From IMG/VR virus record IMGVR_UViG_3300032011_002031, positions 6,277 through 70,276 of that record: DNA of 64,000 bases; one strand, written 5' to 3'. Positions 29,421 to 49,738 of the stretch are shown here, in pieces (positions within the stretch are counted from its first letter, which is position 1; each line of letters begins with the position of its first letter). The notes below the pieces were generated by a model. It ran no database searches, was not told where the DNA came from, and worked only from the letters and a program-made list of their open reading frames with translations. Source of the stretch: a virus. Its lineage: Duplodnaviria > Caudoviricetes. Position numbers and translations under genes: made by a program.

Positions 29421-30161
29421 ATGATTAAATTAATGGATTTACTAAAAGAGGGTGTACAAGATAAAGGTATATTCAAAGCCGTATTTCTTGCAGGTGGACC
29501 TGGGAGTGGTAAAACTTATGCTGCCAAACAAATATTTGGTATACCTGATAGATTTAATATATCTATGAGTGGTATGAAGATGGTTAACTCGGATAAAGAG
29601 CTAAAGTTTTTATTAAATAAATTTGGATTTGGTACTGATTTAGATAAAATGCCTGATGAAGTATTTTTAAACTTAACAGGTGATGGGCCAGATGCAAGTG
29701 GATTAAGAAAGTTTTCAAAATCACTTACCAAACAAAGAATGAAATTATATCAACAAGGTAAGTTGGGTATGATAATAGATGGTACAGGCCACGATTTTGC
29801 TAAAATACAAAAAATGAAATCTGAGTTAGAAGCAGATGGATATGATACTTATATGTGTATGGTGAATACATCATTAGAGGTGGCACAAAAAAGAAATCAA
29901 GAAAGAGATAGAATACTACCACCAGATTTATTAGAGAAGAGTTGGAAAGATGTACAGAAAAATCTTGGTGCATTTCAATCATTATTTAAAAATAATTTCG
30001 TGATAGTTGATAATTCAAAACATCTATCCGATGAAGAAGCGGAGGCAAAATTTGTTCCATTGGTTACTAAAGTTGTTAGAAAGTTTGTTGCTAAACCTAT
30101 CAAAAACAAACTTGGAAAAAAGTGGGTTGAAAAACAAAAACTACTTAATAGGAGAAAATAA
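29421..30161 (+). CDS. P-loop kinase (zeta-toxin/polynucleotide kinase-like) with MIKLMDLLKE leader
   Basis: Walker A AGGPGSGKT, VNSD, IIDGT, lid RNQER; SD GGAG at 29411. Confidence 0.75.
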   Translation: MIKLMDLLKEGVQDKGIFKAVFLAGGPGSGKTYAAKQIFGIPDRFNISMSGMKMVNSDKELKFLLNKFGFGTDLDKMPDEVFLNLTGDGPDASGLRKFSKSLTKQRMKLYQQGKLGMIIDGTGHDFAKIQKMKSELEADGYDTYMCMVNTSLEVAQKRNQERDRILPPDLLEKSWKDVQKNLGAFQSLFKNNFVIVDNSKHLSDEEAEAKFVPLVTKVVRKFVAKPIKNKLGKKWVEKQKLLNRRK

Positions 30162-30162
30162 A

Positions 30163-30645
30163 ATGTTAACAACATTCGATGAGATTATAGAAGTAACACT
30201 ACACCACGAAGGCGGATATGTTCACGACCCAAGTGATTTAGGTGGTGAAACAAACTTCGGTATAGCAAAAAGATTTTATCCAGATGTAGATATTAAGAAC
30301 CTTGATAAAGAGGGTGCTAAAGAAATCTATAAAAAAGATTATTGGGATAAAAATAAGGTAGATGATTTATCAGATGATTTAAAACATATCTTTTTTGATA
30401 TGTGTGTGAATCAAGGTAGAGGAACTGCCGTAAAGATTTTACAACGAGCGTGTAATGCAAAGGGTGCTGATTTAGCTATTGATGGTGGATTTGGACCTGG
30501 TACAAAAAGTGCAGTAGATACATATAAACCATCACTTGGTAGAGTTCGTTGTTATAGATTAAAACATTATTATGATTTAGTAAATAGAAAACCAGAACAA
30601 GAACGCTTTTTGTATGGTTGGTTTAAACGAGCATTATCAGTATAG
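30163..30645 (+). CDS. Lysozyme, glycoside hydrolase family 108
   Basis: HEGGYVHDPSDLGGETNFGI, YW, VNQG, DGGFGPGT, GWFKR; SD GGAG 30151 supports ATG 30163. Confidence 0.85.
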   Translation: MLTTFDEIIEVTLHHEGGYVHDPSDLGGETNFGIAKRFYPDVDIKNLDKEGAKEIYKKDYWDKNKVDDLSDDLKHIFFDMCVNQGRGTAVKILQRACNAKGADLAIDGGFGPGTKSAVDTYKPSLGRVRCYRLKHYYDLVNRKPEQERFLYGWFKRALSV

Positions 30646-30655
30646 GAGATAAGAA

Positions 30656-30949
30656 ATGTCAGCATTAGGAATAAAAACAATGAGTGGAAGTTTCGTAAGT
30701 AGAACCGCAGGTTCATACTCTACTTCTGCAAAATTTAAACAAATAGAAACTGTCACGGCGGATACAGATTTTTACGCAACAGGTTCATTTGCAGGTTCAA
30801 AAGGATTCATAGTCCAAACTGCAGGAAATTCAGTAATAACACCAATTCAAGGTGATAGTATTGCTGCATCAGCAGTAACTGCAAAAACACTATATGAGAT
30901 TGGTGTGAACAGAGTTAGTGGTAGTGGATTAATTAGTCTACTTTATTAA
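30656..30949 (+). CDS. Hypothetical (possibly virion) protein
   Basis: AGGAG SD; Ser/Gly/Thr-rich composition like the structural genes. Confidence 0.6.
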   Translation: MSALGIKTMSGSFVSRTAGSYSTSAKFKQIETVTADTDFYATGSFAGSKGFIVQTAGNSVITPIQGDSIAASAVTAKTLYEIGVNRVSGSGLISLLY

Positions 30950-30951
30950 AA

Positions 30952-31269
30952 ATGGCAGGAGATTGCTATCAAGCCAATGGTAATTTTATCATTGAAAAAA
31001 TGGATGACAAACAATTTAAGTTGTGTCACGGAGTTGCTTTGTTAGCAAGTGATAAGAAACCTTATGGTCATTGTTGGATAGAGAAAGGAAGTATGGTAAT
31101 GGATTTTTCTAATGGAAAAAAACTGGCATTACAAAAGAAAAAATATTACGAATTAGGTGGAATACCCGTAAAGGGATATCCAGTCTATAAATATACAGGT
31201 AGAGAAGCGGCAACACAAATGGTAAAATTAGGACATTGGGGACCTTGGGAATCCAAACCACCGAGATAA
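30952..31269 (+). CDS. Hypothetical protein with Cys/His motifs (possible papain/transglutaminase-like fold)
   Basis: GDCY ... HG ... GHCWIE. Confidence 0.4.
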   Translation: MAGDCYQANGNFIIEKMDDKQFKLCHGVALLASDKKPYGHCWIEKGSMVMDFSNGKKLALQKKKYYELGGIPVKGYPVYKYTGREAATQMVKLGHWGPWESKPPR

Positions 31270-31272
31270 ATT

Positions 31273-32364
31273 ATGAGAACATTTCACATAGATGAACCAA
31301 GAGAAATTGGAAAAAAGAAAGATAGATTATCATCAAGAGAAAAGATGATGGTTAAGAATGATATATTAGAACGATTAGCACACGAGAATACTTGTGTTAA
31401 TTGTGGTGATATTGTTAATGAAGATTTAAGAAAATGGTTTAAAGATAAATGGGTAAACATCGGTAAAAAGAAAAAAGGCGGTGGACACCCACCTTGTGGT
31501 ACGAGTGGTAAAAAAAGGGGATATGCAAAATGTGTTCCTAAAAGTAAAGCTGCTAGTATGAGTAAGAAAGATAAAAAAAGTGCAACTCGTAGAAAAAGAG
31601 CAGCACAAAACAAAGCAAATCGTGGTGGAACTGATTCCACGAGGGGTGGTGGTAAAAAACCAATCAATGTAAAAACGAAAGCGGAGAACATAATGAAGTT
31701 AGAAGAATTAGTAGGAAAAAGAATCACAGAAGCTCAATTTGATGAGGCTGCTGGTGAAAAGGATGCGTGTTATCATAAAGTAAAATCTCGTTATGATGTA
31801 TGGCCTTCCGCTTACGCTAGTGGTGCATTGGTAAAATGTAGAAAAGTTGGTGCAAAGAATTGGGGTAACAAATCTAAGAAAGAAAATGTAAAAGAAACTA
31901 AGGTTTGGAGTCTTGATGAAAAGTGTTGGAAAGGATATGAGAAAAAAGGAACAAAGAAAATGTTTGGTAAAACATATCCTAATTGTGTAAAGAAAGAGGG
32001 TGTTCAAACTAATGTTTGGTTAGGTGAAAACGAACTCTATTACGAATCCAATACAGGTGAATCTGGTGGATACACATTTGAATTTATTGATAATAATAAT
32101 TTACAAGAAGCAGAATATCAAGGAAGAAAAGTAAAACTTGGTAAGATTATGCAAGGTGATGTTAAAAAGTTTAAAGTATATGTTAACAATCCAAAAGGAA
32201 ATGTTGTTAAAGTAAACTTCGGACAGGGTGGAGATGCTAAGGGTGGAACTATGAGAATTAGAAAATCCAATCCTAAAGCTCGTAAATCATTTAGAGCAAG
32301 ACATAATTGTGATAGTCCAGGTCCAAGACATAAAGCTCGTTACTGGTCGTGTAGGAAGTGGTAG
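31273..32364 (+). CDS. Modular basic Cys/Trp-rich phage protein
   Basis: Short modules (LRKWFKDKWV..PCG; DACYHKVK..WPSAYASG; KCWKGY..PNCV; EYQGRKVKL..YWSC) separated by VNE, ITE, LDE, LQE. Confidence 0.65.
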   Translation: MRTFHIDEPREIGKKKDRLSSREKMMVKNDILERLAHENTCVNCGDIVNEDLRKWFKDKWVNIGKKKKGGGHPPCGTSGKKRGYAKCVPKSKAASMSKKDKKSATRRKRAAQNKANRGGTDSTRGGGKKPINVKTKAENIMKLEELVGKRITEAQFDEAAGEKDACYHKVKSRYDVWPSAYASGALVKCRKVGAKNWGNKSKKENVKETKVWSLDEKCWKGYEKKGTKKMFGKTYPNCVKKEGVQTNVWLGENELYYESNTGESGGYTFEFIDNNNLQEAEYQGRKVKLGKIMQGDVKKFKVYVNNPKGNVVKVNFGQGGDAKGGTMRIRKSNPKARKSFRARHNCDSPGPRHKARYWSCRKW

Positions 32365-32365
32365 A

Positions 32366-35300
32366 GTGTCTCTTCTAACAGAATGGCTAATTAAACCACT
32401 AACAGAAGATGTAAAGTTACCAATAGAAGTAGGTGATACTGTCTTGATGGGTAGGTTTAAAAATAAAAAAGTTACTGTCAAGAGTATTGATTATAACGAA
32501 AAGGGTGATTTATTAATCAATGGTAGACCTGCATTAAAATTCAGATTAACTAAACAAAATGGTAAGAAACTATTACCACAGAAAACTACAGATAAGGGTT
32601 CAGTTGCAAAAGACCCAGATATGAGAGGTGCAGAATTTAAAGGTATTCGTGCTAATAAAAAAGAAAATGTTAATGAAAATAAAATAACCATTAATGTACC
32701 TGGTGATATAAAAGGGTTACATCGTCTATTCAAGAAAAACAAAAAACAATTATACATAGTGGGTGGTGCAGTTCGTGATGCAATACTTGGTAAGAAACCA
32801 AAAGATTTTGATTTAGCTACAGATGCAAAACCAGATGAAGTATTGAAGATTGCAAAGAGTGGTGGATTCAAAACATATGAGGTTGGTAAATCATTTGGAG
32901 TAGTGGTTGTGGGTGGACACGAGATTGCAACATTCAGAAAAGATATTGGTAAAGGTCGTAGACCAGATGCAGTTGATTTCTCTGATATACAAGGTGATGT
33001 CAAACGAAGAGATTTAACTATTAATGCTATGTTCTATGATATAGGAAGTAATGAAGTTGTAGATTTGACTGGTGGATTAAAAGATTTAAAAGCAAAAATA
33101 ATAAAAACAGTCGGTAATCCTAATCGTAGGTTTGACGAAGACCCATTAAGAAAATTAAGAGCACTAAGATTTCAGGCAGTTGTTGGTGGTAAGATGGATA
33201 AAGAAACAGAAATGGCTTTATTAAAGAATCCAAGTTTAAAGGGTGTTAGTTTTGAAAGAATTAGAGAAGAGTTTGTAAAGGGAATTGAAAAGGGAAAATC
33301 ACCTAAATTATTTATGGAAGCTTGTGATAAGTTTGGATTTACAAAACAAATATTTCCCAAGTTAAATATAGCAAAACCTTATCCACAAGTCAAGGATTAT
33401 GTTTTATTTATTGCATCTATTTTAAGAAACAATAAAGTACAAAAATTAGGTAAACAATTAAACGCATTAAAGTATAGTGCAAAAGATGCTAATAATATTC
33501 AGTTTTTAGTTTATTTAAAAAACTTTAAACCAGAAAACATTTATATGATAAAGAAGGCACAAGATAAAACCACACTAACACCAAGACAAATTGTTGTGTG
33601 GGGTGGAATGATTGGTAAAGATTTTAGAAAACTTGCTACATTTAAATTAAGTGTGAAGGCAGGTGGTGATGAATTTATAGGATTAAAAGGTAAAGAGATT
33701 GGTGATAAGATAAAAGAATTAGAGAAGAAAAAATTCTTAAATGAAATGATTCCATCACCAAGTAGAAAGGGTATTAATAAAAACAAAACTGATAGAATGA
33801 GTGGATATAAAAAAGTAGAGGAAATAGCAGTTCGTAAGAAACCTAAAACATTCAGAGATATTTATAATTCAATTCCAATAGATTTAAAGAAACGAGTTAT
33901 GAACCTTAAAAACTTTGACCAACGAAGAGATGCTCATCCAGAGGGTAATGTTTTAAAACATACCATTGCTGTAACTAACAGAGCATTAAAAACAGGTGAT
34001 ATAGATTTTGCTCTATCAGCATTGTTTCACGATATAGGAAAAGATTCAACCGCAAAGATACATCCAAAGAAAGGTTTCTGGACACATTATGGACACGAGA
34101 AGGTTTCTGCTAAACTTGTATTGAAACACAAGAAGTGGATACAATCATTGGGTGGTGATGTTGATGATATACATTACATAGTAAAGAATCATATGAGAAT
34201 GAAAGTATTTGATAAGATGAGATGGCATAAACAAGATAAGATGAGGAAAGATAAAGCATTTGGTAAGTTACAAAAATTTACTACATTCGATAAAGGTGGT
34301 AGGGGTATAAGTGATGGTAAAATAAATAAAAAAACACTTGACTCTTATATGGAAAATGTCGTATATTCTATCATAGAAGATGGGGATTTTGCAATCAATT
34401 TGAACGAGAATAAGATTAAAAAAGTAATAGGTATTTATGGTGGAAGATTTCAACCATATGGTCCACATCATCACAAAACATTTAAATGGTTACAATCTAA
34501 AGTTGATGATGCATATATTACTACATCTGATATAAAGAAACCACCAAGACACCCAATGAACTTTCAAGAGAAAGCAAGACATATGGCAAAGATGGGTGTA
34601 CCAAAAAATAAAATTAGAAAAGAAAAAGTACCTTTAGTTTCAAAAGAGTTACTTAAAAAGTTTGACCCAAAAACTACCGCAGTTGTTTATATCTTTGGAG
34701 CAAAAGATGCTGGTAGATTAAGTGGTGGTAAAAAGAAAGATGGTTCACCTGGATACTTTCAAGATTACAAAAAGAATATACGAAACATAAAGGGGTACGA
34801 AGAACACGGATACTTTTTAGTTGCACCGCATGTAAGTATGAAAATCGGTAGTAATGAGGTATCAGGTACTACTATGAGAAATATATTAGGTTCACCTAAG
34901 ATTAAAGATGAGGATAGACCTAAAGTATTTAAAAAGTTATTTGGATACTACGATAAGGGTTTATATAATATGATGACTAATAAATTCAAAAAGTTATTTG
35001 AATTTTATAATCAATCATCAGTAAAAAATATATTAAAAGAAGTAAGTGCACTTGGAGATACTGTCACACCAAGTGATTTGGATGATGAGGGATTATATGA
35101 TTTCTTTAATTCATTCGGAGATTATAAAAGAATATCACCAAAACACGCAGAAATATTAGGATGGGAAGTAGTAGGTGACATAATTGGTAAAAATGCAAAA
35201 GACCCAGGTTTTGATTTCACCACATCAACGATAAGTAGAGTAGATACAGTCACATTTGGTAAAACGATAAATCAAAATACATCTAATACTGATAGTGTGA

Positions 35301-36769
35301 GTAATCCATTTCCAAAATACCAAAAGTATATGAAAGGTATTGTTGATAAGATGGGGTGGGAAATTGTAAAGTTCTTTGGTAGTAATAAACATAATAAAGG
35401 ATTTGATGATTCACCTATACACGATATGGGAACTGCAACTGCAGGTAAAAAGAATACAGAGAAACCAGAGGACCCTAAAAAATTAAAAGATTTTCACGAA
35501 ATAATTGATATAACAGAACAAACAAAGGAGTTATTACTTATGGGAGGAGCATATGGACATATGAGTCATCCTTTTGATGATAATAATCTTACATTTTCAG
35601 ACTTGAAACAGATAGTTATTAATGGCTTGGGAGGCAAGTTAGACAGAGAAGATGGAGTTACAGAAAAACTTGATGGACAGAATCTAATGGTAAGTTGGAT
35701 TGATGGGAAGTTAAGAGCAGCTCGTAACAAAGGACATATAAAGAACTTTGGAAAAACTGCACCAACCACGAATGGAATAAAATCTATGTTTAGTGGTAGG
35801 GGTAATATAGAAAAAGCCTTTGTAGGTGCGATGAAAGATTTAGAGAAATCTATAGGTAGTTTAAATGATAAACAAAAAGATAAAGTTTTCGGTAATGGAA
35901 AACGATGGATGAATTTAGAGGTTATGTATCCAGCAACAGCAAATGTAGTAGATTACGATGTAGCAGAAATAGTGTTTCACGGAACATTAGAGTATGATGA
36001 GAGTGGTAGACCAGTTGGTCAACCTAAAGATAGTGCTCGTATGTTGGCAGGTATGATTAAACAAACAAACAACCATATACAAAAAATGTTCAAGATTGGT
36101 AAACCAAATTTTTTAAGTGTACCTAAACATCAAGATTTTGGAAAGATGAAAAATAAATATTTAGGACAATTAAAAAAACTACAATCACAATATGGATTAA
36201 GTGATAAGGATACATTAGGTGAATATCACGAATCATATTGGAGAGAGTATGTATTCAATGCATCAAAACAATTTGGTGTAAAATTAAAACCAGCACAATT
36301 TGCTAAATTAATTAGAAGATGGGCATACTTTGATAAAGGATATAAAATACCAGAAATTAAAAAAGATTATAAAGACCATCCTAAATTTTTAGATTGGATA
36401 ACATCTACAGATAAACAAGACCATACTAAGATATTTAAACAAAATATAAAACCATTTGAGATATTGTTCTTCTCAGTAGGTGCAGAAATACTCAAAAATA
36501 TAAGTGGGTATATGGCAGTTAATCCAAATAAAACAATTCAGAAGATGAGAAAAGAAATGATTAGTGCAATGAAAGATTTGCAAAAACCAGATAAAATAGA
36601 AAAACTAAAAAAGTTAAAAATACAAATTGAAAAACTACAGAAGATTGGTGGTTTAGATGCAATAGTACCAAGTGAGGGTATAGTGTTTAAGTATAAAGGA
36701 AACACATATAAGTTTACAGGTGCATTTGCTCCAATCAATCAAATACTTGGTAGTATAAAATTTGGATAA
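32366..36769 (+). CDS. Polyprotein: small N-domain + CCA-adding enzyme + HD phosphohydrolase + HIGH-family nucleotidyltransferase + unknown domain + ATP-dependent ligase-like domain
   Basis: CCA class II: VGGAVRD, DFDLATD, RRDLTINA, FDEDPLRKLRALRF, ERIREE. HD: HPEG..H, FHDIGK, GHE, H. NTase: GGRFQP, SGTTMR. Ligase: TEKLDG, NLE, VFH, EGIVFK..YK. GTG 32366 (2 nt after the upstream stop) preferred over 32309. Confidence 0.85.
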   Translation: MSLLTEWLIKPLTEDVKLPIEVGDTVLMGRFKNKKVTVKSIDYNEKGDLLINGRPALKFRLTKQNGKKLLPQKTTDKGSVAKDPDMRGAEFKGIRANKKENVNENKITINVPGDIKGLHRLFKKNKKQLYIVGGAVRDAILGKKPKDFDLATDAKPDEVLKIAKSGGFKTYEVGKSFGVVVVGGHEIATFRKDIGKGRRPDAVDFSDIQGDVKRRDLTINAMFYDIGSNEVVDLTGGLKDLKAKIIKTVGNPNRRFDEDPLRKLRALRFQAVVGGKMDKETEMALLKNPSLKGVSFERIREEFVKGIEKGKSPKLFMEACDKFGFTKQIFPKLNIAKPYPQVKDYVLFIASILRNNKVQKLGKQLNALKYSAKDANNIQFLVYLKNFKPENIYMIKKAQDKTTLTPRQIVVWGGMIGKDFRKLATFKLSVKAGGDEFIGLKGKEIGDKIKELEKKKFLNEMIPSPSRKGINKNKTDRMSGYKKVEEIAVRKKPKTFRDIYNSIPIDLKKRVMNLKNFDQRRDAHPEGNVLKHTIAVTNRALKTGDIDFALSALFHDIGKDSTAKIHPKKGFWTHYGHEKVSAKLVLKHKKWIQSLGGDVDDIHYIVKNHMRMKVFDKMRWHKQDKMRKDKAFGKLQKFTTFDKGGRGISDGKINKKTLDSYMENVVYSIIEDGDFAINLNENKIKKVIGIYGGRFQPYGPHHHKTFKWLQSKVDDAYITTSDIKKPPRHPMNFQEKARHMAKMGVPKNKIRKEKVPLVSKELLKKFDPKTTAVVYIFGAKDAGRLSGGKKKDGSPGYFQDYKKNIRNIKGYEEHGYFLVAPHVSMKIGSNEVSGTTMRNILGSPKIKDEDRPKVFKKLFGYYDKGLYNMMTNKFKKLFEFYNQSSVKNILKEVSALGDTVTPSDLDDEGLYDFFNSFGDYKRISPKHAEILGWEVVGDIIGKNAKDPGFDFTTSTISRVDTVTFGKTINQNTSNTDSVSNPFPKYQKYMKGIVDKMGWEIVKFFGSNKHNKGFDDSPIHDMGTATAGKKNTEKPEDPKKLKDFHEIIDITEQTKELLLMGGAYGHMSHPFDDNNLTFSDLKQIVINGLGGKLDREDGVTEKLDGQNLMVSWIDGKLRAARNKGHIKNFGKTAPTTNGIKSMFSGRGNIEKAFVGAMKDLEKSIGSLNDKQKDKVFGNGKRWMNLEVMYPATANVVDYDVAEIVFHGTLEYDESGRPVGQPKDSARMLAGMIKQTNNHIQKMFKIGKPNFLSVPKHQDFGKMKNKYLGQLKKLQSQYGLSDKDTLGEYHESYWREYVFNASKQFGVKLKPAQFAKLIRRWAYFDKGYKIPEIKKDYKDHPKFLDWITSTDKQDHTKIFKQNIKPFEILFFSVGAEILKNISGYMAVNPNKTIQKMRKEMISAMKDLQKPDKIEKLKKLKIQIEKLQKIGGLDAIVPSEGIVFKYKGNTYKFTGAFAPINQILGSIKFG

Positions 36770-36778
36770 GGAGTTATA

Positions 36779-37882: not shown

Positions 37883-38266
37883 ATGAAATATATTATATAC
37901 ATATTATTTTTGTTTAGTGTTCTTCTTGGTCAAACTGCAGAAGAAACCATAACTTTACCTAAAGTAGATGTAGTTGAGTGGGCAAATAAATTACAAGGGT
38001 TTGAAAAAGCCGATAGTTTATCTACAATTCTTATATCTGATTTAGAGAAGTCTATAATTTTGTTAGAAGAGAATGCATATATGGATTCTTTAATAATAGA
38101 AAAACGAGAACTTCAAATTTCGTTACTAAAGGATACAAATGAACTGATGGAACAGAAAGTTAAACTTGTTAAACCTAAGTGGCATGAAAATAAATGGTTA
38201 TGGTTTGTTTATGGTGTAGGTGCTACAGCAATTTCAGTTAACCTTGCAGGACAGATAACAAACTAA
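37883..38266 (+). CDS. Signal-peptide/coiled-coil protein with C-terminal hydrophobic segment
   Basis: MKYIIYILFLFSVLLG; coiled coil; WLWFVYGVGATAISV. Confidence 0.55.
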   Translation: MKYIIYILFLFSVLLGQTAEETITLPKVDVVEWANKLQGFEKADSLSTILISDLEKSIILLEENAYMDSLIIEKRELQISLLKDTNELMEQKVKLVKPKWHENKWLWFVYGVGATAISVNLAGQITN

Positions 38267-39840
38267 TGGCAGAACAAATAAAAGATGTAATTAAACAAGA
38301 GTACATTAGGTGTGCAAAAGACCCAGTTTACTTTTTGATGAAGTATTGTATGATACAACATCCAATCAGAGGTAAGATACCATTTGAATTGTATCAGTTT
38401 CAACAAGATACTGTCAGAGAGTTTGTAGACAATAGGTTTAATGTAATCTTAAAAGCTCGACAATTGGGTATCAGTACATTAACTGCTGGTTACTCATTAT
38501 GGTTGATGACATTTTTTCAAGATAAGAATATTCTTGTTATTGCTACCAAACAAGATACTGCTAAGAACCTTGTAACAAAAGTTCGTGTTATGCATGCAAA
38601 CTTACCTTCGTGGTTGAAACAAAGATGTGTTGAGGATAACAAATTGAACCTTAGATACACCAATGGTTCACAAATAAAAGCAAGTGCAAGTGGACCAGAA
38701 GCCGCTCGTTCCGAAGCATTATCATTATTGATATTAGATGAGGCTGCGTTTATTGATAAGATAGATGAGATATGGACTGCATCACAACAAACACTTACAA
38801 CAGGTGGTAGTTGTATTGCGTTATCAACACCTAACGGAGTTGGTAATTGGTTTCATAGAACTTGGGTAGATGCAGAAGAGGGTAGAGGATTATTTAATGA
38901 TATCAAACTTCATTGGACTGTACATCCAGATAGAGAACAAGACTGGAGAGATGAGCAAAATACCTTATTAGGATTACAAGGTGCAGCACAAGAATGTGAT
39001 TGTGATTTTATTACTTCTGGTACTTCAGTTATTGATGGTGTATTATTAGAGAAGATGAAAACAGATGTATGTCAAGACCCAATTGAAAAGAGAGGTATGG
39101 ATGGTAACTTATGGATATGGCAACCACCAAACTATACACGAGATTATATAGTATGTGCTGATGTTGGTAGAGGTGATGGTAAAGATTATAGTGCATTTCA
39201 TGTCATTGATGTGGAGAATGTAGAACAAGTTGCAGAGTACAAAGGTAGGATGAGTACTAAAGATTTTGGTAATATGTTAGTGAGTATTTCAACAGAATAT
39301 AATGATGCTTTACTAATTATAGAAAACAATAACATTGGTTGGGCAACAATCCAACAAGTAATAGATAGGGATTATCCTAATCTATTTTATACAAGCAAAG
39401 ATTTAAAATATGTTGATATGGCACATCAGATGACTAATCGATATAAACAACAAGATAAGAATATGGTGGCTGGATTCAGTACCACTATGAGAACTCGACC
39501 TTTGATTATTGCAAAGTTAGAGGAATATTTTAGGAACGAAGAAGTAGTAGTTCGTTCAAACCGATTGGTAGATGAATTATTTACATTTATTTACCATAAT
39601 AACAGAGCAGAGGCAATGACTGGATACAATGATGATTTAGTTATGTCGTTTGCTATAGGATTATGGGTTCGTGATACAGCATTAAGATTACGAACTGAGG
39701 GTATAGAATTAGTAAAGAAGTCCCTTAATAGTATGTTAGATACTGATGGACTTTATACACCCAGCGAAAATAAAAATGATAGTTGGGAAATGGAAATTGG
39801 AAGAAACAAAGAAAAAGAGGGCTTAGAATGGCTCTTATAA
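38266..39840 (+). CDS. terL: Terminase large subunit (T4 gp17-like)
   Basis: ILKARQLGIST (Walker A), LILDEAAF (Walker B), STPNG, ADVGRG..DYS, NDDLVMS. Confidence 0.95.
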   Translation: MAEQIKDVIKQEYIRCAKDPVYFLMKYCMIQHPIRGKIPFELYQFQQDTVREFVDNRFNVILKARQLGISTLTAGYSLWLMTFFQDKNILVIATKQDTAKNLVTKVRVMHANLPSWLKQRCVEDNKLNLRYTNGSQIKASASGPEAARSEALSLLILDEAAFIDKIDEIWTASQQTLTTGGSCIALSTPNGVGNWFHRTWVDAEEGRGLFNDIKLHWTVHPDREQDWRDEQNTLLGLQGAAQECDCDFITSGTSVIDGVLLEKMKTDVCQDPIEKRGMDGNLWIWQPPNYTRDYIVCADVGRGDGKDYSAFHVIDVENVEQVAEYKGRMSTKDFGNMLVSISTEYNDALLIIENNNIGWATIQQVIDRDYPNLFYTSKDLKYVDMAHQMTNRYKQQDKNMVAGFSTTMRTRPLIIAKLEEYFRNEEVVVRSNRLVDELFTFIYHNNRAEAMTGYNDDLVMSFAIGLWVRDTALRLRTEGIELVKKSLNSMLDTDGLYTPSENKNDSWEMEIGRNKEKEGLEWLL

Positions 39841-41720: not shown

Positions 41721-42584
41721 ATGTCAAGCAATAAAAAGCATAGTAAAATAAAAAATACAGGTATATTATTCGAACTTTTAACGAGACAGATTACTGTCGA
41801 TGTGTTAAATAGTTCAAATGAATCATCTGCAATTAAAATTCTTAAAGAATTTTTCAATCCTAAGACAGAACTTGGGAAAGAATATGAACTTTATAAGATA
41901 CTTTTAGAAAAAAAGTATGGAAAAAGTGAACAAGCTAATATATTAATAGAAGCTGTAACAAAAAATCGTAGAAGATTATCTAATCGTAGATTAAAAAACG
42001 AAAAGTATAATTTAATTAAAACGATTAAAGAAAATTATTCAGTAGTTGATTTCTTCAACACAAAAATACCAAATTATAAAGTTTTGGCATCAATTTATAA
42101 TGTATTTGAAATGGAATCATCTAAAGAAAAGATTACACCAGTTGAGGAAACTGATAGTAAAGTTACTATTATTGAAAATATTTGTACCGAACAAAAAAAT
42201 AAACCAAAGAAAAAATCTATTGTGGAATCACAAGAAAAAGATTTGCGTTTACTAACTTATCAATTATTAGTTGATAAATTTAATAAAAAATATAGTAATC
42301 TAAATGAAAGTCAAAGAAATTTATTGAGAGAATACATAAACAATCTTTCAAATACTAATTCTCTTAGAGAGTTCATCGATACTGAAGTTATAAAAGTTAA
42401 AAAAATCTTAAAAGCTCACTTAAATAAAGTGAATGATAAGATAACTAAAATAAAATTAAGTGAAGCAATCACACATACAGAAAATTCTACTACTGGTAAG
42501 TTTGTAAAAGATTCGCATGTTGTTTCATTGATGAGGTATTACGAGCTTATTAAGGAGTTAGATAATGTCCACAAAATTAAATAA
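41721..42584 (+). CDS. Hypothetical head-module protein
   Basis: KHSKIKNTGILFELL; position directly after portal; SD GGAG 41711. Confidence 0.65.
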   Translation: MSSNKKHSKIKNTGILFELLTRQITVDVLNSSNESSAIKILKEFFNPKTELGKEYELYKILLEKKYGKSEQANILIEAVTKNRRRLSNRRLKNEKYNLIKTIKENYSVVDFFNTKIPNYKVLASIYNVFEMESSKEKITPVEETDSKVTIIENICTEQKNKPKKKSIVESQEKDLRLLTYQLLVDKFNKKYSNLNESQRNLLREYINNLSNTNSLREFIDTEVIKVKKILKAHLNKVNDKITKIKLSEAITHTENSTTGKFVKDSHVVSLMRYYELIKELDNVHKIK

Positions 42585-43218
42585 AAACCAATTTATAGAA
42601 GCTCTTCGAAAACTTATAAGAAAAGAAATAGAAGAGGCATCAACAACTGCTTCAGCAGGTGGTAACCAAGGTCAAGGTATCCATTATGATACACCAAAAG
42701 CATTTGCTAGTGGTTCAGACGAGGGTAAAGGTCATCCAACAGATGGAGAAGTAGGTGGATATACAAAGGCAGAACAAGTAAATGAAGTAATGTTTGCGGT
42801 TAAGATTAGTAAAGATGGTAGTGAATTACAAACTATCGTTGGTGCATCATCTAAAGGACAAGCTAAAACAAAAGTTGCTAGAATGTTAAAAGGTGGAATG
42901 AAAGATATCATTGGTGTATCAAGAATACAACCAGCATTTGGTAAACAAATTGATAAAAAAATTGAAAATGTAAGTGAAGGTCGTTATCATCAATATCGTA
43001 ATGATGATTCTTTAACTGCAAAACAAAAGATTGGTCATTCAATGAGAGAGGTTAGGGATAAACTAACTGAATTAAGTAAACTTATTGATATGAATGTTAA
43101 ATTAAAGAATGAGTTAAGTGTTGATTCAAAATCATATTGGAAGAACACACATAAAGCAATGAGTAAAATATCAGAACGATTAGTAAAACTCGCTAATAAA
43201 GTAGGGAAACTGCAATGA
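42565..43218 (+). CDS. Modular head-region protein (candidate internal/core protein)
   Basis: Segments bounded by IEE, VNE, VSE. Confidence 0.6.
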   Translation: MSTKLNKNQFIEALRKLIRKEIEEASTTASAGGNQGQGIHYDTPKAFASGSDEGKGHPTDGEVGGYTKAEQVNEVMFAVKISKDGSELQTIVGASSKGQAKTKVARMLKGGMKDIIGVSRIQPAFGKQIDKKIENVSEGRYHQYRNDDSLTAKQKIGHSMREVRDKLTELSKLIDMNVKLKNELSVDSKSYWKNTHKAMSKISERLVKLANKVGKLQ

Positions 43219-44318
43219 ACGATAAATATTTAAAAGAATCAATGGATATACTAAATAGAAAATTTGGTGAACCATTACCAACACTTGAGGATACTACAAA
43301 AGCTTATCAAGAGATAAAGTTTGGTTCAAAAGCACAATATGATAAGTATAAGAAACAACACAAAATTAGACCTGGTACTGAAATTGATATTGATGGTAAA
43401 AAATCTAAAGAAAAAGGTGATGTAAAAGATGTAAAACCAGATAAAAAAATTGATAAACAAACATCTAAAGCAGCAGATGATGCAAATGAAAAAATGGCAA
43501 TGGCAGATGTACCAAATATTCGTATTCAACAAATTACAAATGCAGACGTAGATGTTATCAAACCAGACCATATAGCTAAAACACATAAAGCTTTGAAAAA
43601 AGCTGGTAGTAATAAAGCTGATAAATTTAAAGAATTGGGTGATGCATATGCACAAGCAGAAAAGGATAGAACTAAAGAATATCGTAAATATTATAAAAAG
43701 GACGAACCAAACGATTCTGAAGCTAATAAAAAAGCAAGAAAAGCATTTGAAGATGGTGATGACAAAGTATCAAAATTAGGTTCTGAAATGCAAAAACTTT
43801 TGGGTAAAAAAGATTTGAACAAAAGAGTAAAAGAAAATAATGTAGCACTTACTGAAAACCCAATAGTTGCAGCGACTGTAATGCATATGACAAAGATGAA
43901 TATGAAAAACCCTAAAACTGGTAGAACTATTAAAGCAATCACACCATTAAAAAATAAAGAACACCCATTACATAAGAAATCAAAGGGTATTTTTGATAAG
44001 ATTAAAGATGCTATGAAAAAGAAAAAGAAAGTAGAACCTAAAAAACAATCTAAATCAGATGCTGATTTCTATAAAAAACAATTCACTGGTGAAGTAACAG
44101 AGGGACCAGATGATAAAAGGTCTGCAAGAAGAGTATTATCAAAGATTGCTAAAACGGAAACAAAATTTAGAAAAGAAATGTATGAATTAGAACAAGCATT
44201 TCTACAAGACCCACGAACTGAAAATAAACAAGCAGCAAAAGACATAAAGAAAGCATATAAAGATGGGGTAACAAAGTTTATGAGAGATTCAGTTAAACTG
44301 ATTAAAGGGATGAAATAA
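43215..44318 (+). CDS. Modular K/D/E-rich head-region protein
   Basis: MNDKYLKE leader; internal LTE and VTE. Confidence 0.6.
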   Translation: MNDKYLKESMDILNRKFGEPLPTLEDTTKAYQEIKFGSKAQYDKYKKQHKIRPGTEIDIDGKKSKEKGDVKDVKPDKKIDKQTSKAADDANEKMAMADVPNIRIQQITNADVDVIKPDHIAKTHKALKKAGSNKADKFKELGDAYAQAEKDRTKEYRKYYKKDEPNDSEANKKARKAFEDGDDKVSKLGSEMQKLLGKKDLNKRVKENNVALTENPIVAATVMHMTKMNMKNPKTGRTIKAITPLKNKEHPLHKKSKGIFDKIKDAMKKKKKVEPKKQSKSDADFYKKQFTGEVTEGPDDKRSARRVLSKIAKTETKFRKEMYELEQAFLQDPRTENKQAAKDIKKAYKDGVTKFMRDSVKLIKGMK

Positions 44319-44319
44319 A

Positions 44320-44943
44320 ATGAAAAACTTAATTGTAGATTATATACCTTTTGAGATATCAAGAAACCAAATTCAAGAATCAATTAAAGAGAATGATGGT
44401 AAATTGGTAGTTAAAGGTGTATTACAAAGAGCAGATGCAAAGAATCAAAATGGAAGAGTATATCCAATGGAGATTCTAACAAGAGAAGCAAAGAATTATG
44501 ACGATGGATTTATTAAACAGAAAAGAGCATTAGGTGAACTTGACCATCCAGATTCATCAGTAGTTAATCTACAAAATGTATCTCACAACATTACAGAGAT
44601 GCACTTTGAGGGTGATAGTTTAGTTGGGACAGTAGAAATCTTAACAACACCAAGTGGAAACATTTTAAGAGAGTTATTTAAGAATGGTATCAAGTTAGGT
44701 ATCAGTTCTCGTGGTATGGGTTCAGTTGAGGCAGTACAAGAAGCAGATAGTAAAACACCAGTGATGAAAGTTGGACAGGATTTTGAATTAATCGCATTTG
44801 ATTTCGTATCAAATCCATCAACACACGGAGCTTTTTTACATCCAGTCAATGAGGGTGTATCACAACCACAAACACAAGGTAGAACTTGTGGTACTTATTG
44901 TAAAGCAGAAGATATAATTAACAAAATTATAAGAGGAGAGTAA
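44320..44943 (+). CDS. gp21: Prohead core protease (T4 gp21-like)
   Basis: NQNGRVYP, LGELDHP, SHNI, GISSRGMGS, FDFVSNPS. Confidence 0.95.
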   Translation: MKNLIVDYIPFEISRNQIQESIKENDGKLVVKGVLQRADAKNQNGRVYPMEILTREAKNYDDGFIKQKRALGELDHPDSSVVNLQNVSHNITEMHFEGDSLVGTVEILTTPSGNILRELFKNGIKLGISSRGMGSVEAVQEADSKTPVMKVGQDFELIAFDFVSNPSTHGAFLHPVNEGVSQPQTQGRTCGTYCKAEDIINKIIRGE

Positions 44944-44944
44944 G

Positions 44945-45151: not shown

Positions 45152-46350
45152 TGCCTTCCAAATCAAAAGCCCAACAAAAATTTATGGGAATAGTTCACGC
45201 CTTTAATAAGGGTGAATTAAAAAGTTCAGAGGTTAGTAAACAAGTAAAAGATGTTGCTAAATCTATGAAGAAGAAAGATACAAAAGATTTTGCAAAAACA
45301 AAACACAAGGGATTACCTAATAAAGTGACACAAGAATGGTTAAAGAAAACAATTAGAGAACTCGTAGATGAAGAGTTAAACCTTGAGGGTACTTGTGGGT
45401 ATGGTGAAGATGGTGTCTTAGGTGATGAACCTGCTGGTCCACATTTGTTGAAGAAAAAGAAAAACGAAAGTGCATCTGAAAAGAAAAAAATTCACGCATT
45501 AATGGTTAAACGAGGTGATAATCCTAAAGATGCTCAAGATTCTTTAGATAAAGTTTATGATTTTATAAAGAAAGCATATAGAAGAGCATCAGTTGCAAAG
45601 AAAGCAGAAATCGTTTCATCATTATCTAAATACGAATCTAAACAATTTAAAAAAGTAGTTGTATCAGAGGGTGTAAGAGCAACAAAAGCTTATAATCAAT
45701 TCCAAAAATCTCGTATTAATTTCTTAGAGAGATGGGGTAAACTTAAAAAACAATTAAATACTTTAAAAACTGAATCACCTAATGATGAATATTTAAGATT
45801 AGAAAAACAATTATATAAATTTGAAACTTCATTCATAGAAAATTCAGCTAAGATGATGGGTTCTCTTTCAAAGATATCAAAGAGTAATTTAACGGAAAGT
45901 TATACTTCTAATATGATGAGAGATATTCGTAAAGGTGGAACTGCAGGACCTTGGACTATTATTGTAAGTAAAAACAATAGTATAAAGAGAACCACTATGG
46001 TGAAAAATTTAAAAGAAATCCCAGCATATATGAGTGATATAAAGAAAAAATTTCCAAATCATAAGATTGGTATAGAGTCCAAAGGTGGTAAGATAGTTTA
46101 CAGAGAATCCATAAATGAGGAAGTTACCAAATCAAAAGGTGTTCAAAAGATTTTTGATATACAAAAAAATGGTTATGGAAAACTTGGTGGTAGAACATTA
46201 GATAGTTTAAGTGCTGGATTATTCACACAACTATATGATAAAGCCAGTGACCCAATAAAAGAAAAGATGAATAAACTAAACGAAAAAAGACTCTACATAG
46301 TAATTGGGAATATGTGGAAGAAGTTCGGTAAAAATGTGAGTTTAAGATAA
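45151..46350 (+). CDS. Modular head-region protein
   Basis: N-terminal MPSKSKAQQKFMG...HKGLP module; internal VDE, VSE, LTE, INE. Confidence 0.65.
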   Translation: MPSKSKAQQKFMGIVHAFNKGELKSSEVSKQVKDVAKSMKKKDTKDFAKTKHKGLPNKVTQEWLKKTIRELVDEELNLEGTCGYGEDGVLGDEPAGPHLLKKKKNESASEKKKIHALMVKRGDNPKDAQDSLDKVYDFIKKAYRRASVAKKAEIVSSLSKYESKQFKKVVVSEGVRATKAYNQFQKSRINFLERWGKLKKQLNTLKTESPNDEYLRLEKQLYKFETSFIENSAKMMGSLSKISKSNLTESYTSNMMRDIRKGGTAGPWTIIVSKNNSIKRTTMVKNLKEIPAYMSDIKKKFPNHKIGIESKGGKIVYRESINEEVTKSKGVQKIFDIQKNGYGKLGGRTLDSLSAGLFTQLYDKASDPIKEKMNKLNEKRLYIVIGNMWKKFGKNVSLR

Positions 46351-47339
46351 TGATAAAATTAAAAGATATAATCAAAGAATCAAAGGTATCGTATTTAACT
46401 GAGGCTTTTAAAAGTAAACTATTAAGAAAATTTTCTATGAATAATAGAGGTTCGTTAGATAGAGATTTATATAGTTACTTGGCAAAATTGGGTGTAGAAG
46501 CAAGTAAGATTGAAGATGGTCAAATTACAAAACAATCTAAATTACCTGGTAAGGGTGTTGCAATTGCAGTAGCAAGTAAGAAAGTAACTCTTCGAGCAAA
46601 AGGTAATAGATATTGGGAATCTAATTTAGAAATAGATAAGGGAACAATTGTAAGTGTATTCAAAGATGGTAAATCATTATGGTACACAAAATCTTGGAGA
46701 AGTAAAGATATTCAAGTAAAAAATCCTACAGCGTATGGTTCTGAAGATATGAAAACATTCGGTTTAAATAAATACGGATGGCAAAGTCCAGCATCAGTTA
46801 AAAAAATAGATGGTATTGAATTTTATAAAATCTCACTTGAGGAAGATATGCCTTATATGGGTGCTTCAAAATTAAGAAAATTAAGGTCAAGTGTTAAAGA
46901 TGGTTCTTGGGAATGGAGAACTGATAAAGATTTCCAATATGAAAACGAAAGAAGATATGAAGATGCATTAAAGAATATCTACAATGACCCAGCAAAAGTA
47001 AAAAGTGTAATTATGAAAACAAAAGATTATGCTAATAAACTAATTGTTGGATTAGTAGGTGGTAAACCAAATACACATTCTGATAAAATAATGGCTGGTA
47101 AAAAGTTAGACCCTACCAACGAGGGTGATGTAATGAGAGCATTAAGTGATATCACAACCGCTATGAATAAGTTTTATGAAAAGATAGATTCTTATCATAT
47201 GGATTTAAAAAGAGATATAGAAGATAAAAAAAGAAATCCTGATAATCCATATATGGGATTCAACGCACAAAGAGTAGGAAAACAAATTGGTAGTATGTCC
47301 AATACTATTACTTCAGGTGCATTTGCAAGAATTTGGTAA
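46350..47339 (+). CDS. Hypothetical protein with MIKLKDIIKE leader
   Basis: Leader followed by YLTE. Confidence 0.65.
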   Translation: MIKLKDIIKESKVSYLTEAFKSKLLRKFSMNNRGSLDRDLYSYLAKLGVEASKIEDGQITKQSKLPGKGVAIAVASKKVTLRAKGNRYWESNLEIDKGTIVSVFKDGKSLWYTKSWRSKDIQVKNPTAYGSEDMKTFGLNKYGWQSPASVKKIDGIEFYKISLEEDMPYMGASKLRKLRSSVKDGSWEWRTDKDFQYENERRYEDALKNIYNDPAKVKSVIMKTKDYANKLIVGLVGGKPNTHSDKIMAGKKLDPTNEGDVMRALSDITTAMNKFYEKIDSYHMDLKRDIEDKKRNPDNPYMGFNAQRVGKQIGSMSNTITSGAFARIW

Positions 47340-47340
47340 A

Positions 47341-47895
47341 ATGATTAAGTTAAAGGATTTAATAGTAGAGATTGTATTTCCAGATGACTTTATGAAAGAA
47401 ATAAAGAGAGCTGAAAAAGCAACTGGTAAAAAATTTAAAGTACCATCAAGTACAAAAAAACTTTGTATGATGGCAAAAAAGGATGGTTTTCATAAAATAG
47501 ATTATACTGGTAAACCAGGTAAGGCAAGAAAACCAGATTCATTAATGTATCAAGGGTATGCATTTATAATGGGATGGGGACATACCAAGTACAAGAACCC
47601 GTGGGATTGGAGAAGTGATAGAAGCCAACCAGTTCTACAGAACATTCAAAACTCAAGTATTTATACGAGTTTGTTTGATTATGATTTTTTACAATATCAT
47701 GTCACTACAGATTTACAAGCATCACAAGTGGTTGCTAATATCAGACCTGGTTCAAAAGATGAAGAACCAGCATACTATTTAGTTAAGGATTATTTAAATA
47801 GTTTTGGTACTCGTGGTAAGAGTCGTAGAGATGAAGAGATATTGATTAATAAAGTAGATTGGTGGTTAAAGAAAAACAAAGTAGAAACACGATGA
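47341..47895 (+). CDS. Hypothetical protein with MIKLKDLIVE leader
   Basis: ATG 47341 follows the upstream stop; leader DNA nearly identical to 47892. Confidence 0.65.
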   Translation: MIKLKDLIVEIVFPDDFMKEIKRAEKATGKKFKVPSSTKKLCMMAKKDGFHKIDYTGKPGKARKPDSLMYQGYAFIMGWGHTKYKNPWDWRSDRSQPVLQNIQNSSIYTSLFDYDFLQYHVTTDLQASQVVANIRPGSKDEEPAYYLVKDYLNSFGTRGKSRRDEEILINKVDWWLKKNKVETR

Positions 47896-48590
47896 TTAAG
47901 TTAAAAGATTTAATAAAAGAGGATTGTGGATGTGGTTGCGGTGGTTGTGAAACTAACCTAAACGAAAGTGTAACCAATATAGATTTACCACAAGGAATGG
48001 AGATGGGTAAAATCTTCACAGGTGGTGGTTTTGCGTTTAAACCAGAGAACTTAGATAAAGAACAAGTTAATGAATTTTCTATGAACCCATCAGCAGTTAA
48101 AAAGATGAGAGATGAATTTAAAAAGACAGGTGAATTACCACCACACTTAAAGAAGTTTGCAAAAGATTTAAAGAAATTTAAGGTAAAACACAAAGTAAAA
48201 AATATTGTTGTACCTGGTTTAGAGTGGATGTCCGATATAAAAGAGGATGAACAAGAAGAGAACGATTATCTTGGTAAAGATTATATTAAAAACGAATCTC
48301 TTTATAATGTAACTCAAGATATGAAAGATGGAAAGTTCGATGTTAAGAATCCACAAGTACAAATATCAGGATATGGTGTAACAAATTTAAAGACATTACA
48401 AGATAGTTTATCACGAAAGTTTACAGATTTAGCTAAAAAAGCCAAAAAGGGTGATGTTGAAAATATCGAATACATATTGAAAAAGAATGGAGTTCTTATG
48501 GGATTTGTTGAAGCGTTAGTTAATGCAAACAAAGAATTATCATCTTCAACAATGAAAAGAAAAATTACTATGTATAAGAGGAAAAGATAG
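47892..48590 (+). CDS. Modular protein with MIKLKDLIKE leader and CGCGCGGC motif
   Basis: ATGA overlap; internal LNE, VNE, IKE. Confidence 0.65.
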   Translation: MIKLKDLIKEDCGCGCGGCETNLNESVTNIDLPQGMEMGKIFTGGGFAFKPENLDKEQVNEFSMNPSAVKKMRDEFKKTGELPPHLKKFAKDLKKFKVKHKVKNIVVPGLEWMSDIKEDEQEENDYLGKDYIKNESLYNVTQDMKDGKFDVKNPQVQISGYGVTNLKTLQDSLSRKFTDLAKKAKKGDVENIEYILKKNGVLMGFVEALVNANKELSSSTMKRKITMYKRKR

Positions 48591-49009
48591 TGAATAACAA
48601 GATGTGGAATCAATGGAAAGATTGGAGACTTGAAGAACAAGATGTAGATACTCTTGATGAATTAGTACAAGTATTAGTAGAGTTAGATGGATATACAGGT
48701 CCTAAACCAAAGGGAAAGTTTAATCCAGCAATGATGAAGTATTCTAATCGAGAAGCTAAAAGATTTGCAGAAGATGATGTAAAACAAATGGGAAAAGAAT
48801 TAAATAAGGCTTCACAAAAATCAATCAAGATAATGTTGGGTAGTGTTAAAAATGGTAAGTATGATGCTATGGATATAATTCGTGCAATTAAATCGGGTGG
48901 TAGTAGAGCAGGAGATACAAGTGCAGGAGTACCTGAGATGTTGAATGTTTTGTGGAGTAAAGTAGAAAAAAGATTTCGTAAATATTTAGGCGGTAAAAAG
49001 CGAAGATAG
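48590..49009 (+). CDS. Hypothetical protein
   Basis: GTG start abutting the upstream stop; LEE at aa 14-16. Confidence 0.6.
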   Translation: MNNKMWNQWKDWRLEEQDVDTLDELVQVLVELDGYTGPKPKGKFNPAMMKYSNREAKRFAEDDVKQMGKELNKASQKSIKIMLGSVKNGKYDAMDIIRAIKSGGSRAGDTSAGVPEMLNVLWSKVEKRFRKYLGGKKRR

Positions 49010-49011
49010 TG

Positions 49012-49019
49012 ATATTTAT
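49012..49019 (+). promoter_or_regulatory. ATATTTAT putative late promoter element
   Basis: Intergenic, upstream of AAGGAG and ATG 49040. Confidence 0.55.
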
Positions 49020-49039
49020 TACCGACAAAGGAGAATGTA

Positions 49040-49738
49040 ATGGCCAAATTAAAAGATATAATTAAAGAAAATTTCTCACTCGTGGGTGGGGTAGTTTCTA
49101 CACCAGCAATTGGTAGAGGAACAAACACAGGTTTAACTGATATTGTAGAAGATATCTATGGACAATCTGAAAAGGTTTCTGCTAAACAAGTGCAGGAATC
49201 AATGAAACAATTTACTGAGTTCGGAAAGATATTCAGTAATCCAAACAATTTAAAGGAAGTTGCTGAAAAACTTTCAGAGATTGCAACTAATGCAAAATCT
49301 TACACATTAAGTGAAACTGATGATTGGTTTGATAAGGTTACTATCAATCGTAATATGAAAGAGTTAACAAACCTTTCAAAACAATTTGGTAAAATTGCAA
49401 AAGAATCTAATTCCCTACAACAAAGAATGGGTGGATTGTACGAGGATATGGGACATGTTCTTGGTAGATACTTCGAGATAGATGGTAGTGATGAAAAGCA
49501 TGTACCAGGTCACGAAAGAGATATGGAAAAACAAGCAGACCAAGAAGATGCTATGATTAGAAAAGGTTTGAAAAATGTAAAAGGCTCTGATATTAATGAG
49601 GGTGATTACGAAGCATTCTTCAAATCAGCAATGAAAAAATTTGGTATATCATCACCAGATGAATTAGAAGATGATAAAAAGAAAGAGTTCTTTAATTACA
49701 TAGATAAGAACTATTCTGGTGAAAACGAAACTGATTAA
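49040..49738 (+). CDS. Putative prohead core/internal protein with MAKLKDIIKE leader
   Basis: C-terminal module after INE: YEAFFKSAMKKFG.SSPDEL...KKEFFNYIDKNY. Confidence 0.6.
   Translation: MAKLKDIIKENFSLVGGVVSTPAIGRGTNTGLTDIVEDIYGQSEKVSAKQVQESMKQFTEFGKIFSNPNNLKEVAEKLSEIATNAKSYTLSETDDWFDKVTINRNMKELTNLSKQFGKIAKESNSLQQRMGGLYEDMGHVLGRYFEIDGSDEKHVPGHERDMEKQADQEDAMIRKGLKNVKGSDINEGDYEAFFKSAMKKFGISSPDELEDDKKKEFFNYIDKNYSGENETD

Follow-up and report, generated by a model that had tools for sequence, protein, structure and literature searches.

Five genes in a 64,000-nucleotide stretch of viral DNA (IMG/VR record IMGVR_UViG_3300032011_002031, positions 6,277 to 70,276; hereafter the window) encode proteins that start with nearly the same ten residues and are otherwise unrelated. 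What is the role of a decapeptide shared by proteins that have nothing else in common? The capsid targeting sequence (CTS) of T4 is the textbook route for preloading phage proteins for injection. To our knowledge, the CTS is known experimentally only in T-even phages, where it is carried by a handful of cargo proteins. The window has about 30% G+C and comes from a large T4-like myovirus of an uncultured marine lineage. Its decapeptide, M(I/A)KLKD(L/I)(I/L)xE (hereafter the tag), is probably a T4-style capsid-targeting leader that is removed by the prohead protease and serves a far larger cargo set in this distant lineage.

A shared decapeptide at the start of unrelated proteins

All genes of the window that were called from first-ATG open reading frames (ORFs) are located on the + strand. 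The five tagged genes are as follows.

29421..30161, + strand: tagged P-loop kinase with an AAA_33/Zeta_toxin-like body and the Walker A sequence GGPGSGKT; tag MIKLMDLLKE at 29421-29450
46350..47339, + strand: tagged 329-residue basic protein, no fold assigned; tag MIKLKDIIKE at 46350-46379
47341..47895, + strand: tagged 184-residue basic protein; tag MIKLKDLIVE at 47341-47370
47892..48590, + strand: tagged mosaic protein in which the tag (MIKLKDLIKE, 47892-47921) is followed by a Cys-rich knuckle, the GKIFTG module, a linker of basic character, and the SLYNV module at the C-terminus
49040..49738, + strand: tagged 232-residue acidic helical protein, just upstream of the S21 and scaffold genes; tag MAKLKDIIKE at 49040-49069

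A six-frame regular-expression search of the window with the pattern M[IAVL]KL[KMR]D[LIV][LIV].E returns exactly these five matches, all on the + strand and all at ORF starts. The back-translated IUPAC pattern is likewise matched five times, against 0.00 expected from 100 dinucleotide-preserving shuffles of the window. The span 29421-49738 also holds many untagged genes, including those of the terminase, portal, and protease. An N-terminal bias toward MIK and MKL is common in AT-rich genomes, and other window genes indeed start with MIKL, MKL, or MIK (e.g., MIKLIIFDLDG at 6173), so that the tag might be a side effect of this bias. This explanation is refuted by the absence of matches in the 100 shuffles and in all reversed-pattern controls, as well as by the absence of the full motif from all of the approximately 36 genes at 1-28.9 kb, the sugar-metabolism half of the window; its probability is negligible.

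Without their tags, the five bodies exhibit no significant similarity to one another (best pairwise BLASTP E-value of 0.44 in a five-sequence database) and form five separate clusters. The tag DNAs of 47341 and 47892 are identical at 27 of 30 bases, while the DNA on either side of the 30 tag bases, before the ATG and after the Glu codon, does not align among the five genes. The preliminary description of this DNA, made from the sequence alone, had reported five tagged ORFs, bodies without visible similarity, and near-identical leader DNA in 47341 and 47892, and all three observations are borne out.

The relatives of the window show which positions of the tag are constrained. Among 128 unique 10-residue tags, L4 is found in 123, L/I7 in 126, I/L/V8 in 127, and E10 in all 128, while position 9 is occupied by 15 different residues. 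The search pattern fixed positions 3 and 10 and constrained position 8; homologues retrieved by body alone, which is independent of these settings, keep [LIVM]8 and E10. In 113 unique 90-nucleotide instances, the 30 tag bases, and they alone, have a high information content, which drops sharply after the Glu codon; of the 30 bases on each side, nearly all positions have 0.6 bit or less, with one at 0.9.

Conservation is at the level of the peptide rather than of the DNA, and the peptide acts as a module. In the family of the untagged protein 48602, the sister phages L005 and L010 carry the tag (MIKLKEILKE), while the window protein has a Trp-rich N-terminus. Members of the 43215 family start with MKLKDLI(N/K)E in some phages and with MNDKYLKE or MKQNDKYLAE in others, all of which end in L-x-E. 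One and the same module can follow the tag directly or be separated from it by other modules. An explanation at the DNA level, in which the genes have a region for translation initiation in common or a hot spot of recombination for gene shuffling and the peptide is incidental, would account for the A/T-rich and Lys-rich character of the tag, for codons 5 and 9 being nearly always AAA, for the near identity that neighboring tag DNAs can have (27/30 bases), and for the clear shuffling of modules. However, the amino acids are fixed, whereas synonymous codons vary at most positions at about genomic frequencies (e.g., AAA 62% and AAG 38% for K3), with K5 and K9 alone strongly favoring AAA. In addition, the upstream ribosome-binding region is not conserved, the deletion variant MIKLQNIIE/G (a slash marks the presumed cut) retains the [LI]-x-E register, and a second, internal [LIV]-x-E junction, remote from all start codons, is likewise conserved. 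A DNA-level origin is thus highly improbable.

The tag extends well beyond the window. IMG/VR loci that were retrieved by their portal genes, independently of the tag, hold 42 further tagged ORFs, all on the gene strand and at ORF starts; this portal-anchored set also includes one tag-like N-terminus in Flavobacterium phage vB_FspM_immuto (hereafter immuto). Together with pattern scans of IMG/VR (63 stretches) and of metagenomes, whose totals are lower bounds, at least 419 tagged ORFs are found in at least 209 loci of related viral and metagenome contigs. Among the matches listed, 414 of 419 tagged ORFs start within 60 codons of an upstream in-frame stop, at least 313 complete tagged proteins are unique, and at least 106 loci carry two to six tagged genes; the bodies form at least 100 families by single linkage, or at least 139 at a mutual coverage of 60% or more. 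An independent tie to the lineage, i.e., homologues of other window genes or at least two tags, is present in 130 of 171 loci among the matches listed, which support 110 families. The tagged repertoire is highly variable between close relatives.

Controls on this distribution are clean. In nine records of 52-197 kb, a degenerate pattern gives 25 matches and its reversed control none. In 596 Gb of prokaryote genomes, only three matches are found, all in phage head-module contigs that were binned into metagenome-assembled genomes (MAGs). The tag is confined to phage contigs of the lineage and co-occurs with a protease of the Peptidase_S77 family (see below). Two different tagged head-module contigs, L153 and L154 (NZWA01000064.1 and NZWA01000030.1), are binned in one Flavobacteriales MAG (NAT55), which is a weak hint at the host.

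The head module, its protease, and the T4 precedent

The genes surrounding the tagged ORFs are as follows.

38266-39840, + strand: large terminase (TerL), 54% identical to those of Microcystis phage Mel-JY01 and Flavobacterium phage immuto
39853..41661, + strand: T4 gp20-type portal (Portal_T4 9e-75; BLASTP to T4 gp20 5e-24)
42565..43218, + strand: head-module protein whose 12-residue N-terminus ends in hydrophobic-x-E (MSTKLNKNQFIE); relatives begin MSKHDKIAKLKE
43215..44318, + strand: head-module protein with the variant short leader MNDKYLKE/S; sister-phage homologs begin MKLKDLI[NK]E
44320..44943, + strand: prohead protease of the Peptidase_S77 (T4 gp21) family (PF03420 1e-25; phrog_207 3e-52), the presumed tag-removing enzyme
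48602..49009, + strand: untagged family member with the alternative Trp-rich N-terminus
50117..51241, + strand: acidic scaffold-like protein, similar in sequence and position to the gene that immediately precedes the major capsid gene of Mel-JY01 and of immuto
51268..52920, + strand: T4 gp23-type major capsid protein (Pfam Gp23 1e-78; BLASTP to T4 gp23 2e-32)

The window thus harbors a T4-type head module with a gp20 portal, a gp23 capsid protein, and a scaffold. Four of the five tagged genes (46350, 47341, 47892, and 49040) are located between the protease and scaffold genes, apparently in translational coupling. Overlaps or abutting ends join the first three to their neighbors (via TAATG, a one-base gap, and ATGA), which makes them part of the head operon. 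The fifth, 29421, lies 15 kb upstream and adjoins a GH108 lysozyme gene. The head operon also contains a gene for ribosomal protein S21 (49754-49951; PF01165, 1.2e-11) between the last tagged gene and the scaffold, and Mel-JY01 has an S21 gene in the matching place (L001:22183-22410).

The S77 protease is intact. It aligns to T4 gp21 (BLASTP 2e-20; PDB 5jbl, E 1e-11), and its segments ELDHP and SSRG match the gp21 segments bearing the catalytic His and Ser. Tag and S77 protease are found together on 32 of 50 tag-bearing records, 47 of the 50 being at most 41% complete. Tagged genes directly follow the protease gene in three relatives (G003, G027, and G033) and are tens of kilobases away from it in G001 and in the complete genome G002.

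The tag could also be recognized by another partner, such as a modifying enzyme of the type that acts on ribosomally synthesized and post-translationally modified peptides (a radical S-adenosylmethionine, or radical-SAM, enzyme), a chaperone, or an export route. In favor of a modifying enzyme, a SPASM-domain protein is encoded in the sugar cluster of the window. Against it, Radical_SAM is found on 5/50 tag-bearing records, compared with 32/50 for S77, and the two genomes of 87% and 100% completeness, which have both tags and S77, lack it; a leader recognized by a radical-SAM/SPASM enzyme was rejected on this lack of tight co-occurrence. The tag is too short and too charged for a Sec or Tat signal, and its invariant C-terminal Glu and free P2 position fit the cleavage rule of S77 proteases. 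Recognition by any such partner is very unlikely.

A capsid-targeting role would proceed as follows. As a lineage-specific counterpart of the T4 CTS, the tag would be a short, probably helical N-terminal propeptide that binds, through its hydrophobic residues at 4 and 7, to the scaffold core of the prohead during assembly. Any protein bearing it would be enclosed once the gp23-type shell closes. Cleavage by the gp21-type S77 protease at (L/I/V)8-x9-E10, directly behind Glu10, would come next, and the mature protein, freed inside the head, would stay with the DNA and be ejected at infection; some members may instead be degraded as core material. Core binding, cleavage, residence in the virion, and injection are steps that we infer from T4.

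The kinase family illustrates the proposed processing site. Its best 120 homologues, out of thousands in a large protein database, all begin with a MIKL-type tag or with a start that was called inside the tag. In these 120, the kinase core G[VI]xDxGI directly follows [LIV]-x-E, with a single E-to-Q exception, and the junction holds in forms with propeptides of 10, 9, and 50 residues. The 9-residue leader is the above-mentioned deletion variant, found in relatives retrieved by body alone. The long form (285-290 residues; P0017, P0038, and others) has the layout MIKLKDLLE/ASKTG...KLKLILAE/GV, in which an insert of 41-43 residues is flanked by [LIV]-x-E sites, the second of which, (L/V/I)-x-E, closes the insert and adjoins the kinase start; this form would have a two-step propeptide. 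The junction is conserved whatever precedes it, as expected of a processing site.

Other families show the same constraint. In 13 homologs of 46350, E10 and E18 are invariant, the latter closing a second conserved site, YLTE/A, that ends at residue 18; among homologs retrieved by body alone, 12/12 carry a tag variant. In 15 homologs of 49040, MAKLKD and E10 are invariant, and 11/11 of those retrieved by body alone are tagged. The homologs of 47341 in L084 and L091 have an identical tag.

In T4, the N-termini of ipII and ipIII read MKTYQEFIAE/A in NC_000866, the internal-protein sequence quoted in the preliminary description. The same record gives MAKINELLRE/S for gp24, MLKEQLIAE/A for gp22, ...LLIE/T for gp21, and a 19-residue N-terminus ending ITE/A for ipI. 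According to a review of the mutagenesis by Mullaney and Black, CTS residues 4 and 7 are responsible for targeting and residues 8 and 10 for processing, and Asp at position 10 blocks processing while targeting is kept (PMC9026906). These mapped positions coincide with the conserved L4, L/I7, I/L/V8, and E10 of the tag, an agreement of position only. Like the IPII/IPIII CTS, the tag is a 10-residue N-terminal peptide on unrelated, mostly small basic proteins, is hydrophobic at 4, 7, and 8 with a free position 9 and Glu at 10, coexists with a gp21-family protease in the genome, and is borne by genes both within and outside the head module. The cargo differs in extent and in kind: T4 has three cargo proteins, compared with five in the window and about 139 families in the lineage among the matches listed, and the latter include enzymes and mosaic multi-module proteins.

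The closest single match is the propeptide of gp24, with four identities and five conservative replacements between MAKLKDIIKE and MAKINELLRE, which is too short a comparison for statistics. The two are of equal length and share the [LI]-x-E end, and the gp22 (MLKEQLIAE) and gp67 (MEGLIE) propeptides can be grouped with that of gp24. In contrast to the tagged proteins, gp24 is an HK97-fold shell protein, and no gp24 paralogue is seen in the window. Given its gp24-like tag, 49040 was considered as a gp24 homologue and rejected (E 0.33 to T4 gp24).

In the giant phages SPN3US and phiKZ, a gp21-related protease processes many head-internal proteins, among them ejection and inner-body proteins; their long propeptides are established, with a presumed role in directing these proteins to the prohead (PMC5694885). 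Unlike the tag, these propeptides are mostly 80-130 residues long with no one shared decapeptide, and only two SPN3US proteins have a common N-terminus (PMC5694885). CTS-like leaders on variable internal proteins have been established in T4 and its close T-even relatives (PMC3012670, PMC9026906), and our literature search found no paper with the strings MIKLKD or MAKLKD or describing a CTS in marine T4-like phages. The tag is notable for how large and how mosaic its cargo set is. The proposal of the preliminary description, that it is a portable equivalent of the T4 CTS, is supported in silico by the S77 protease and its co-occurrence with the tag, by the length and mapped positions, by the placement of four tagged genes in the head operon, and by the approximately 139 body families, which include different enzyme folds.

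A sister version of the system may exist in a cultured phage. The TerL of immuto is 53.5% identical to that of the window. In immuto (L002, MW353177), four genes begin with MKKS(Q/E)L..I(I/K)E (3278, 3864, 14172, and 24339; control 0), and three carry F(D/N)L(K/R)xFL(V/T)ENKL (4790, 18615, and 19616; control 0). These genes are found at 102-124 kb with the terminase and portal, in a 22-kb region that stops just before the S77 gene. Like the tag, the immuto leaders end in hydrophobic-x-E on otherwise different proteins near the head module; unlike the tag, they have a different sequence and 12-13 residues, and their function is putative. The exact tag is absent from the head regions of Mel-JY01 and immuto, and Mel-JY01 has no clear leader of its own there.

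The architecture of the T4 CTS is thus seen in a distant and abundant, uncultured marine T4-like lineage, and the version in immuto offers an experimental route. If the tag works as in T4, it would provide a sequence handle for listing probable injected effectors (e.g., for anti-defense or host takeover) from metagenomes, as well as a ready-made packaging tag for engineering non-coli phages.

Delivered cargo or expendable core

The tagged bodies have a median length of 141 residues, and 62% have an isoelectric point (pI) above 8; in the window, the pI is 9.0-9.7 for four of the five bodies and 4.9 for 49040. Only about one in ten families has a Pfam match, leaving about 90% without a known domain. 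Matches in families with lineage support are to AAA_33/Zeta_toxin kinases, NUDIX, ParBc_2, DUF6934, DUF7717, DUF3008, and a YunG-like domain; a 2H/Acb1-like match in the complete genome G002 is weak and falls below the threshold. An independent lineage tie is lacking for the loci of NT5C, RNase_T, DUF5824, and a second AAA_33 kinase, which were not counted as established cargo. The matched domains have different folds, and the tag is therefore not a relic of common ancestry. The domains of the enzyme cargo suggest that it may act on nucleotides and nucleic acids.

The window kinase matches PF06414 (2.4e-8) and PF13671 (3.2e-7), while a PDB sequence search gives only weak KaiC P-loop matches. 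NCBIfam and PHROGs add nothing for the tagged bodies except the kinase. No match to 47341 is found in Pfam, PHROG, NCBIfam, or the ESM Atlas, and the latter has no usable match for 46350 either. AlphaFold2 (AF2) models have a predicted local distance difference test score (pLDDT) of 63 for 46350 (13-sequence alignment) and of 50 for 49040, which is helical but poorly modeled (15-sequence alignment); for both, a Foldseek search against the PDB gives nothing with E <0.87.

Residues 136-232 of 47892, its C-terminal module, match L042:13737 with 93% identity; in L042 the module stands directly behind the tag, and in L084 behind the tag and the Cys-rich knuckle. Of the three joints preceding this module, two fit [LIV]-x-E, and the window joint, IKNE, is a misfit. 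Small tagged proteins (47892-48590; L084:787, L042:13737, L056:13137, and others) are mosaics of short modules, among them the Cys-rich ECHCGDSCCS knuckle, RKFGEPLPTLED, GKIFTG, KVELYFRDDLK, and SLYNVSQDMKDG, recombined in varying orders and often at x-N/K-E joints.

The main alternative accepts that the tag is cleaved and holds that its bearers are expendable parts of the core or scaffold, akin to T4 gp22, gp67, and gp68, that would be degraded and leave the head as it matures instead of reaching the host. Short propeptides ending in [LI]-x-E are likewise found at the N-termini of T4 core proteins. The 49040 and 46350 families are syntenic beside the protease and scaffold, and their AF2 models are helical and flexible; 49040 is acidic, as scaffolds are, and many bodies hold further [LIV]-x-E sites. 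As an account of the whole set, this alternative is nevertheless unlikely, although it is the most serious competitor. Enzyme bodies (kinase, NUDIX, ParB-like nuclease, and 2H-like) are implausible as scaffold filler, and the repertoire varies strongly between close relatives. In complete or long genomes, tagged genes are also located far from the head module, as are the T4 internal-protein genes, and most bodies are basic, as are the T4 internal proteins. For 49040 and 46350 themselves, the expendable-core alternative may well be true, and other tagged proteins may also be expendable core components rather than injected effectors.

Several observations weigh against a T4-style cargo leader. 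46350 and 49040, the best conserved of the tagged proteins, are syntenic, helical, and poorly modeled and might belong to the core or scaffold instead of being delivered. Behind the Glu, the next residue varies widely (S, N, E, D, G, V, I, K, and others), whereas the T4 sites compared here have A or S, with Ala in IPII and IPIII. Identity to the IPII/IPIII CTS is limited to 3/10 positions (M1, I8, and E10), which is too short for statistics, and the tag is known here from sequence alone. Cultured close relatives are lacking, the best TerL identity in the phage collection being 54%. Lastly, 41 of 171 loci among the matches listed are without an independent lineage tie, and some metagenome matches may be chance N-termini. 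A capsid-targeting leader remains the probable explanation of the tag; its removal, the presence of the cargo in virions, and injection are what we infer from it by analogy.

Tag-like starts in the scaffold and terminase, and minor features

Two untagged proteins of the window resemble the tag at their N-termini. The scaffold begins with MDDLLKDAIAD (50117-50150), in which Asp replaces the final Glu, and TerL with MAEQIKDVIKQ (38266-38300, MAEQIKDVIKQE); both follow the tag pattern L/I-K-D-x-I-x-(E/D/Q). Among 67 untagged window N-termini, TerL ranks first in tag likeness and the scaffold is tied third to fourth, with weak statistics in both cases. Their immuto counterparts read IKQIVAQ (TerL) and LLKQAIAE (scaffold), and an immuto leader reads LRQIIKE. 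The D-to-Q change is found in all three, which together read L/I-(K/R)-Q-x-(I/V)-x-(E/Q). It is conceivable, although on balance improbable, that the tag copies a docking helix used by the machinery of head assembly itself. If so, the targeting tag of any phage with an S77 protease would be predictable from the N-terminus of its scaffold, opening metagenomes to mining for capsid-delivered effectors, including kinases, NUDIX hydrolases, and Acb1-like phosphodiesterases.

The T4 late promoter TATAAATA is not enriched in the window (19 observed versus 17.6 expected). A different motif, ATATTTAT(A), is found on the + strand at 29380, 37871, 41680, 49012, 49994, 53019, 57293, and 61172. It lies 12-123 nucleotides in front of the genes for the tagged kinase, 49040 (also tagged), and the scaffold, as well as of several structural genes. 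It has 18 copies versus 8.9 expected from mononucleotide shuffles, the largest of which gave 17, and may be the late promoter of the lineage.

Downstream of the tagged kinase, the ORF at 31273-32364 has an in-frame internal Met at 31683-31730 that begins MKLEELVGKRITE, a leader-like sequence. Its end is overlapped by a giant ORF (32309-36769, 1440-1486 residues) with PolyA_pol/CCA-adding and HD domains, the C-terminal parts of which match a Mel-JY01 gene annotated as a "cytidylyltransferase like protein". The SPASM iron-sulfur domain protein mentioned above (PF13186, 6e-7) is encoded in the 21016-21849 region, within a sugar/nonulosonic-acid gene cluster that harbors many radical-SAM genes in long relatives.

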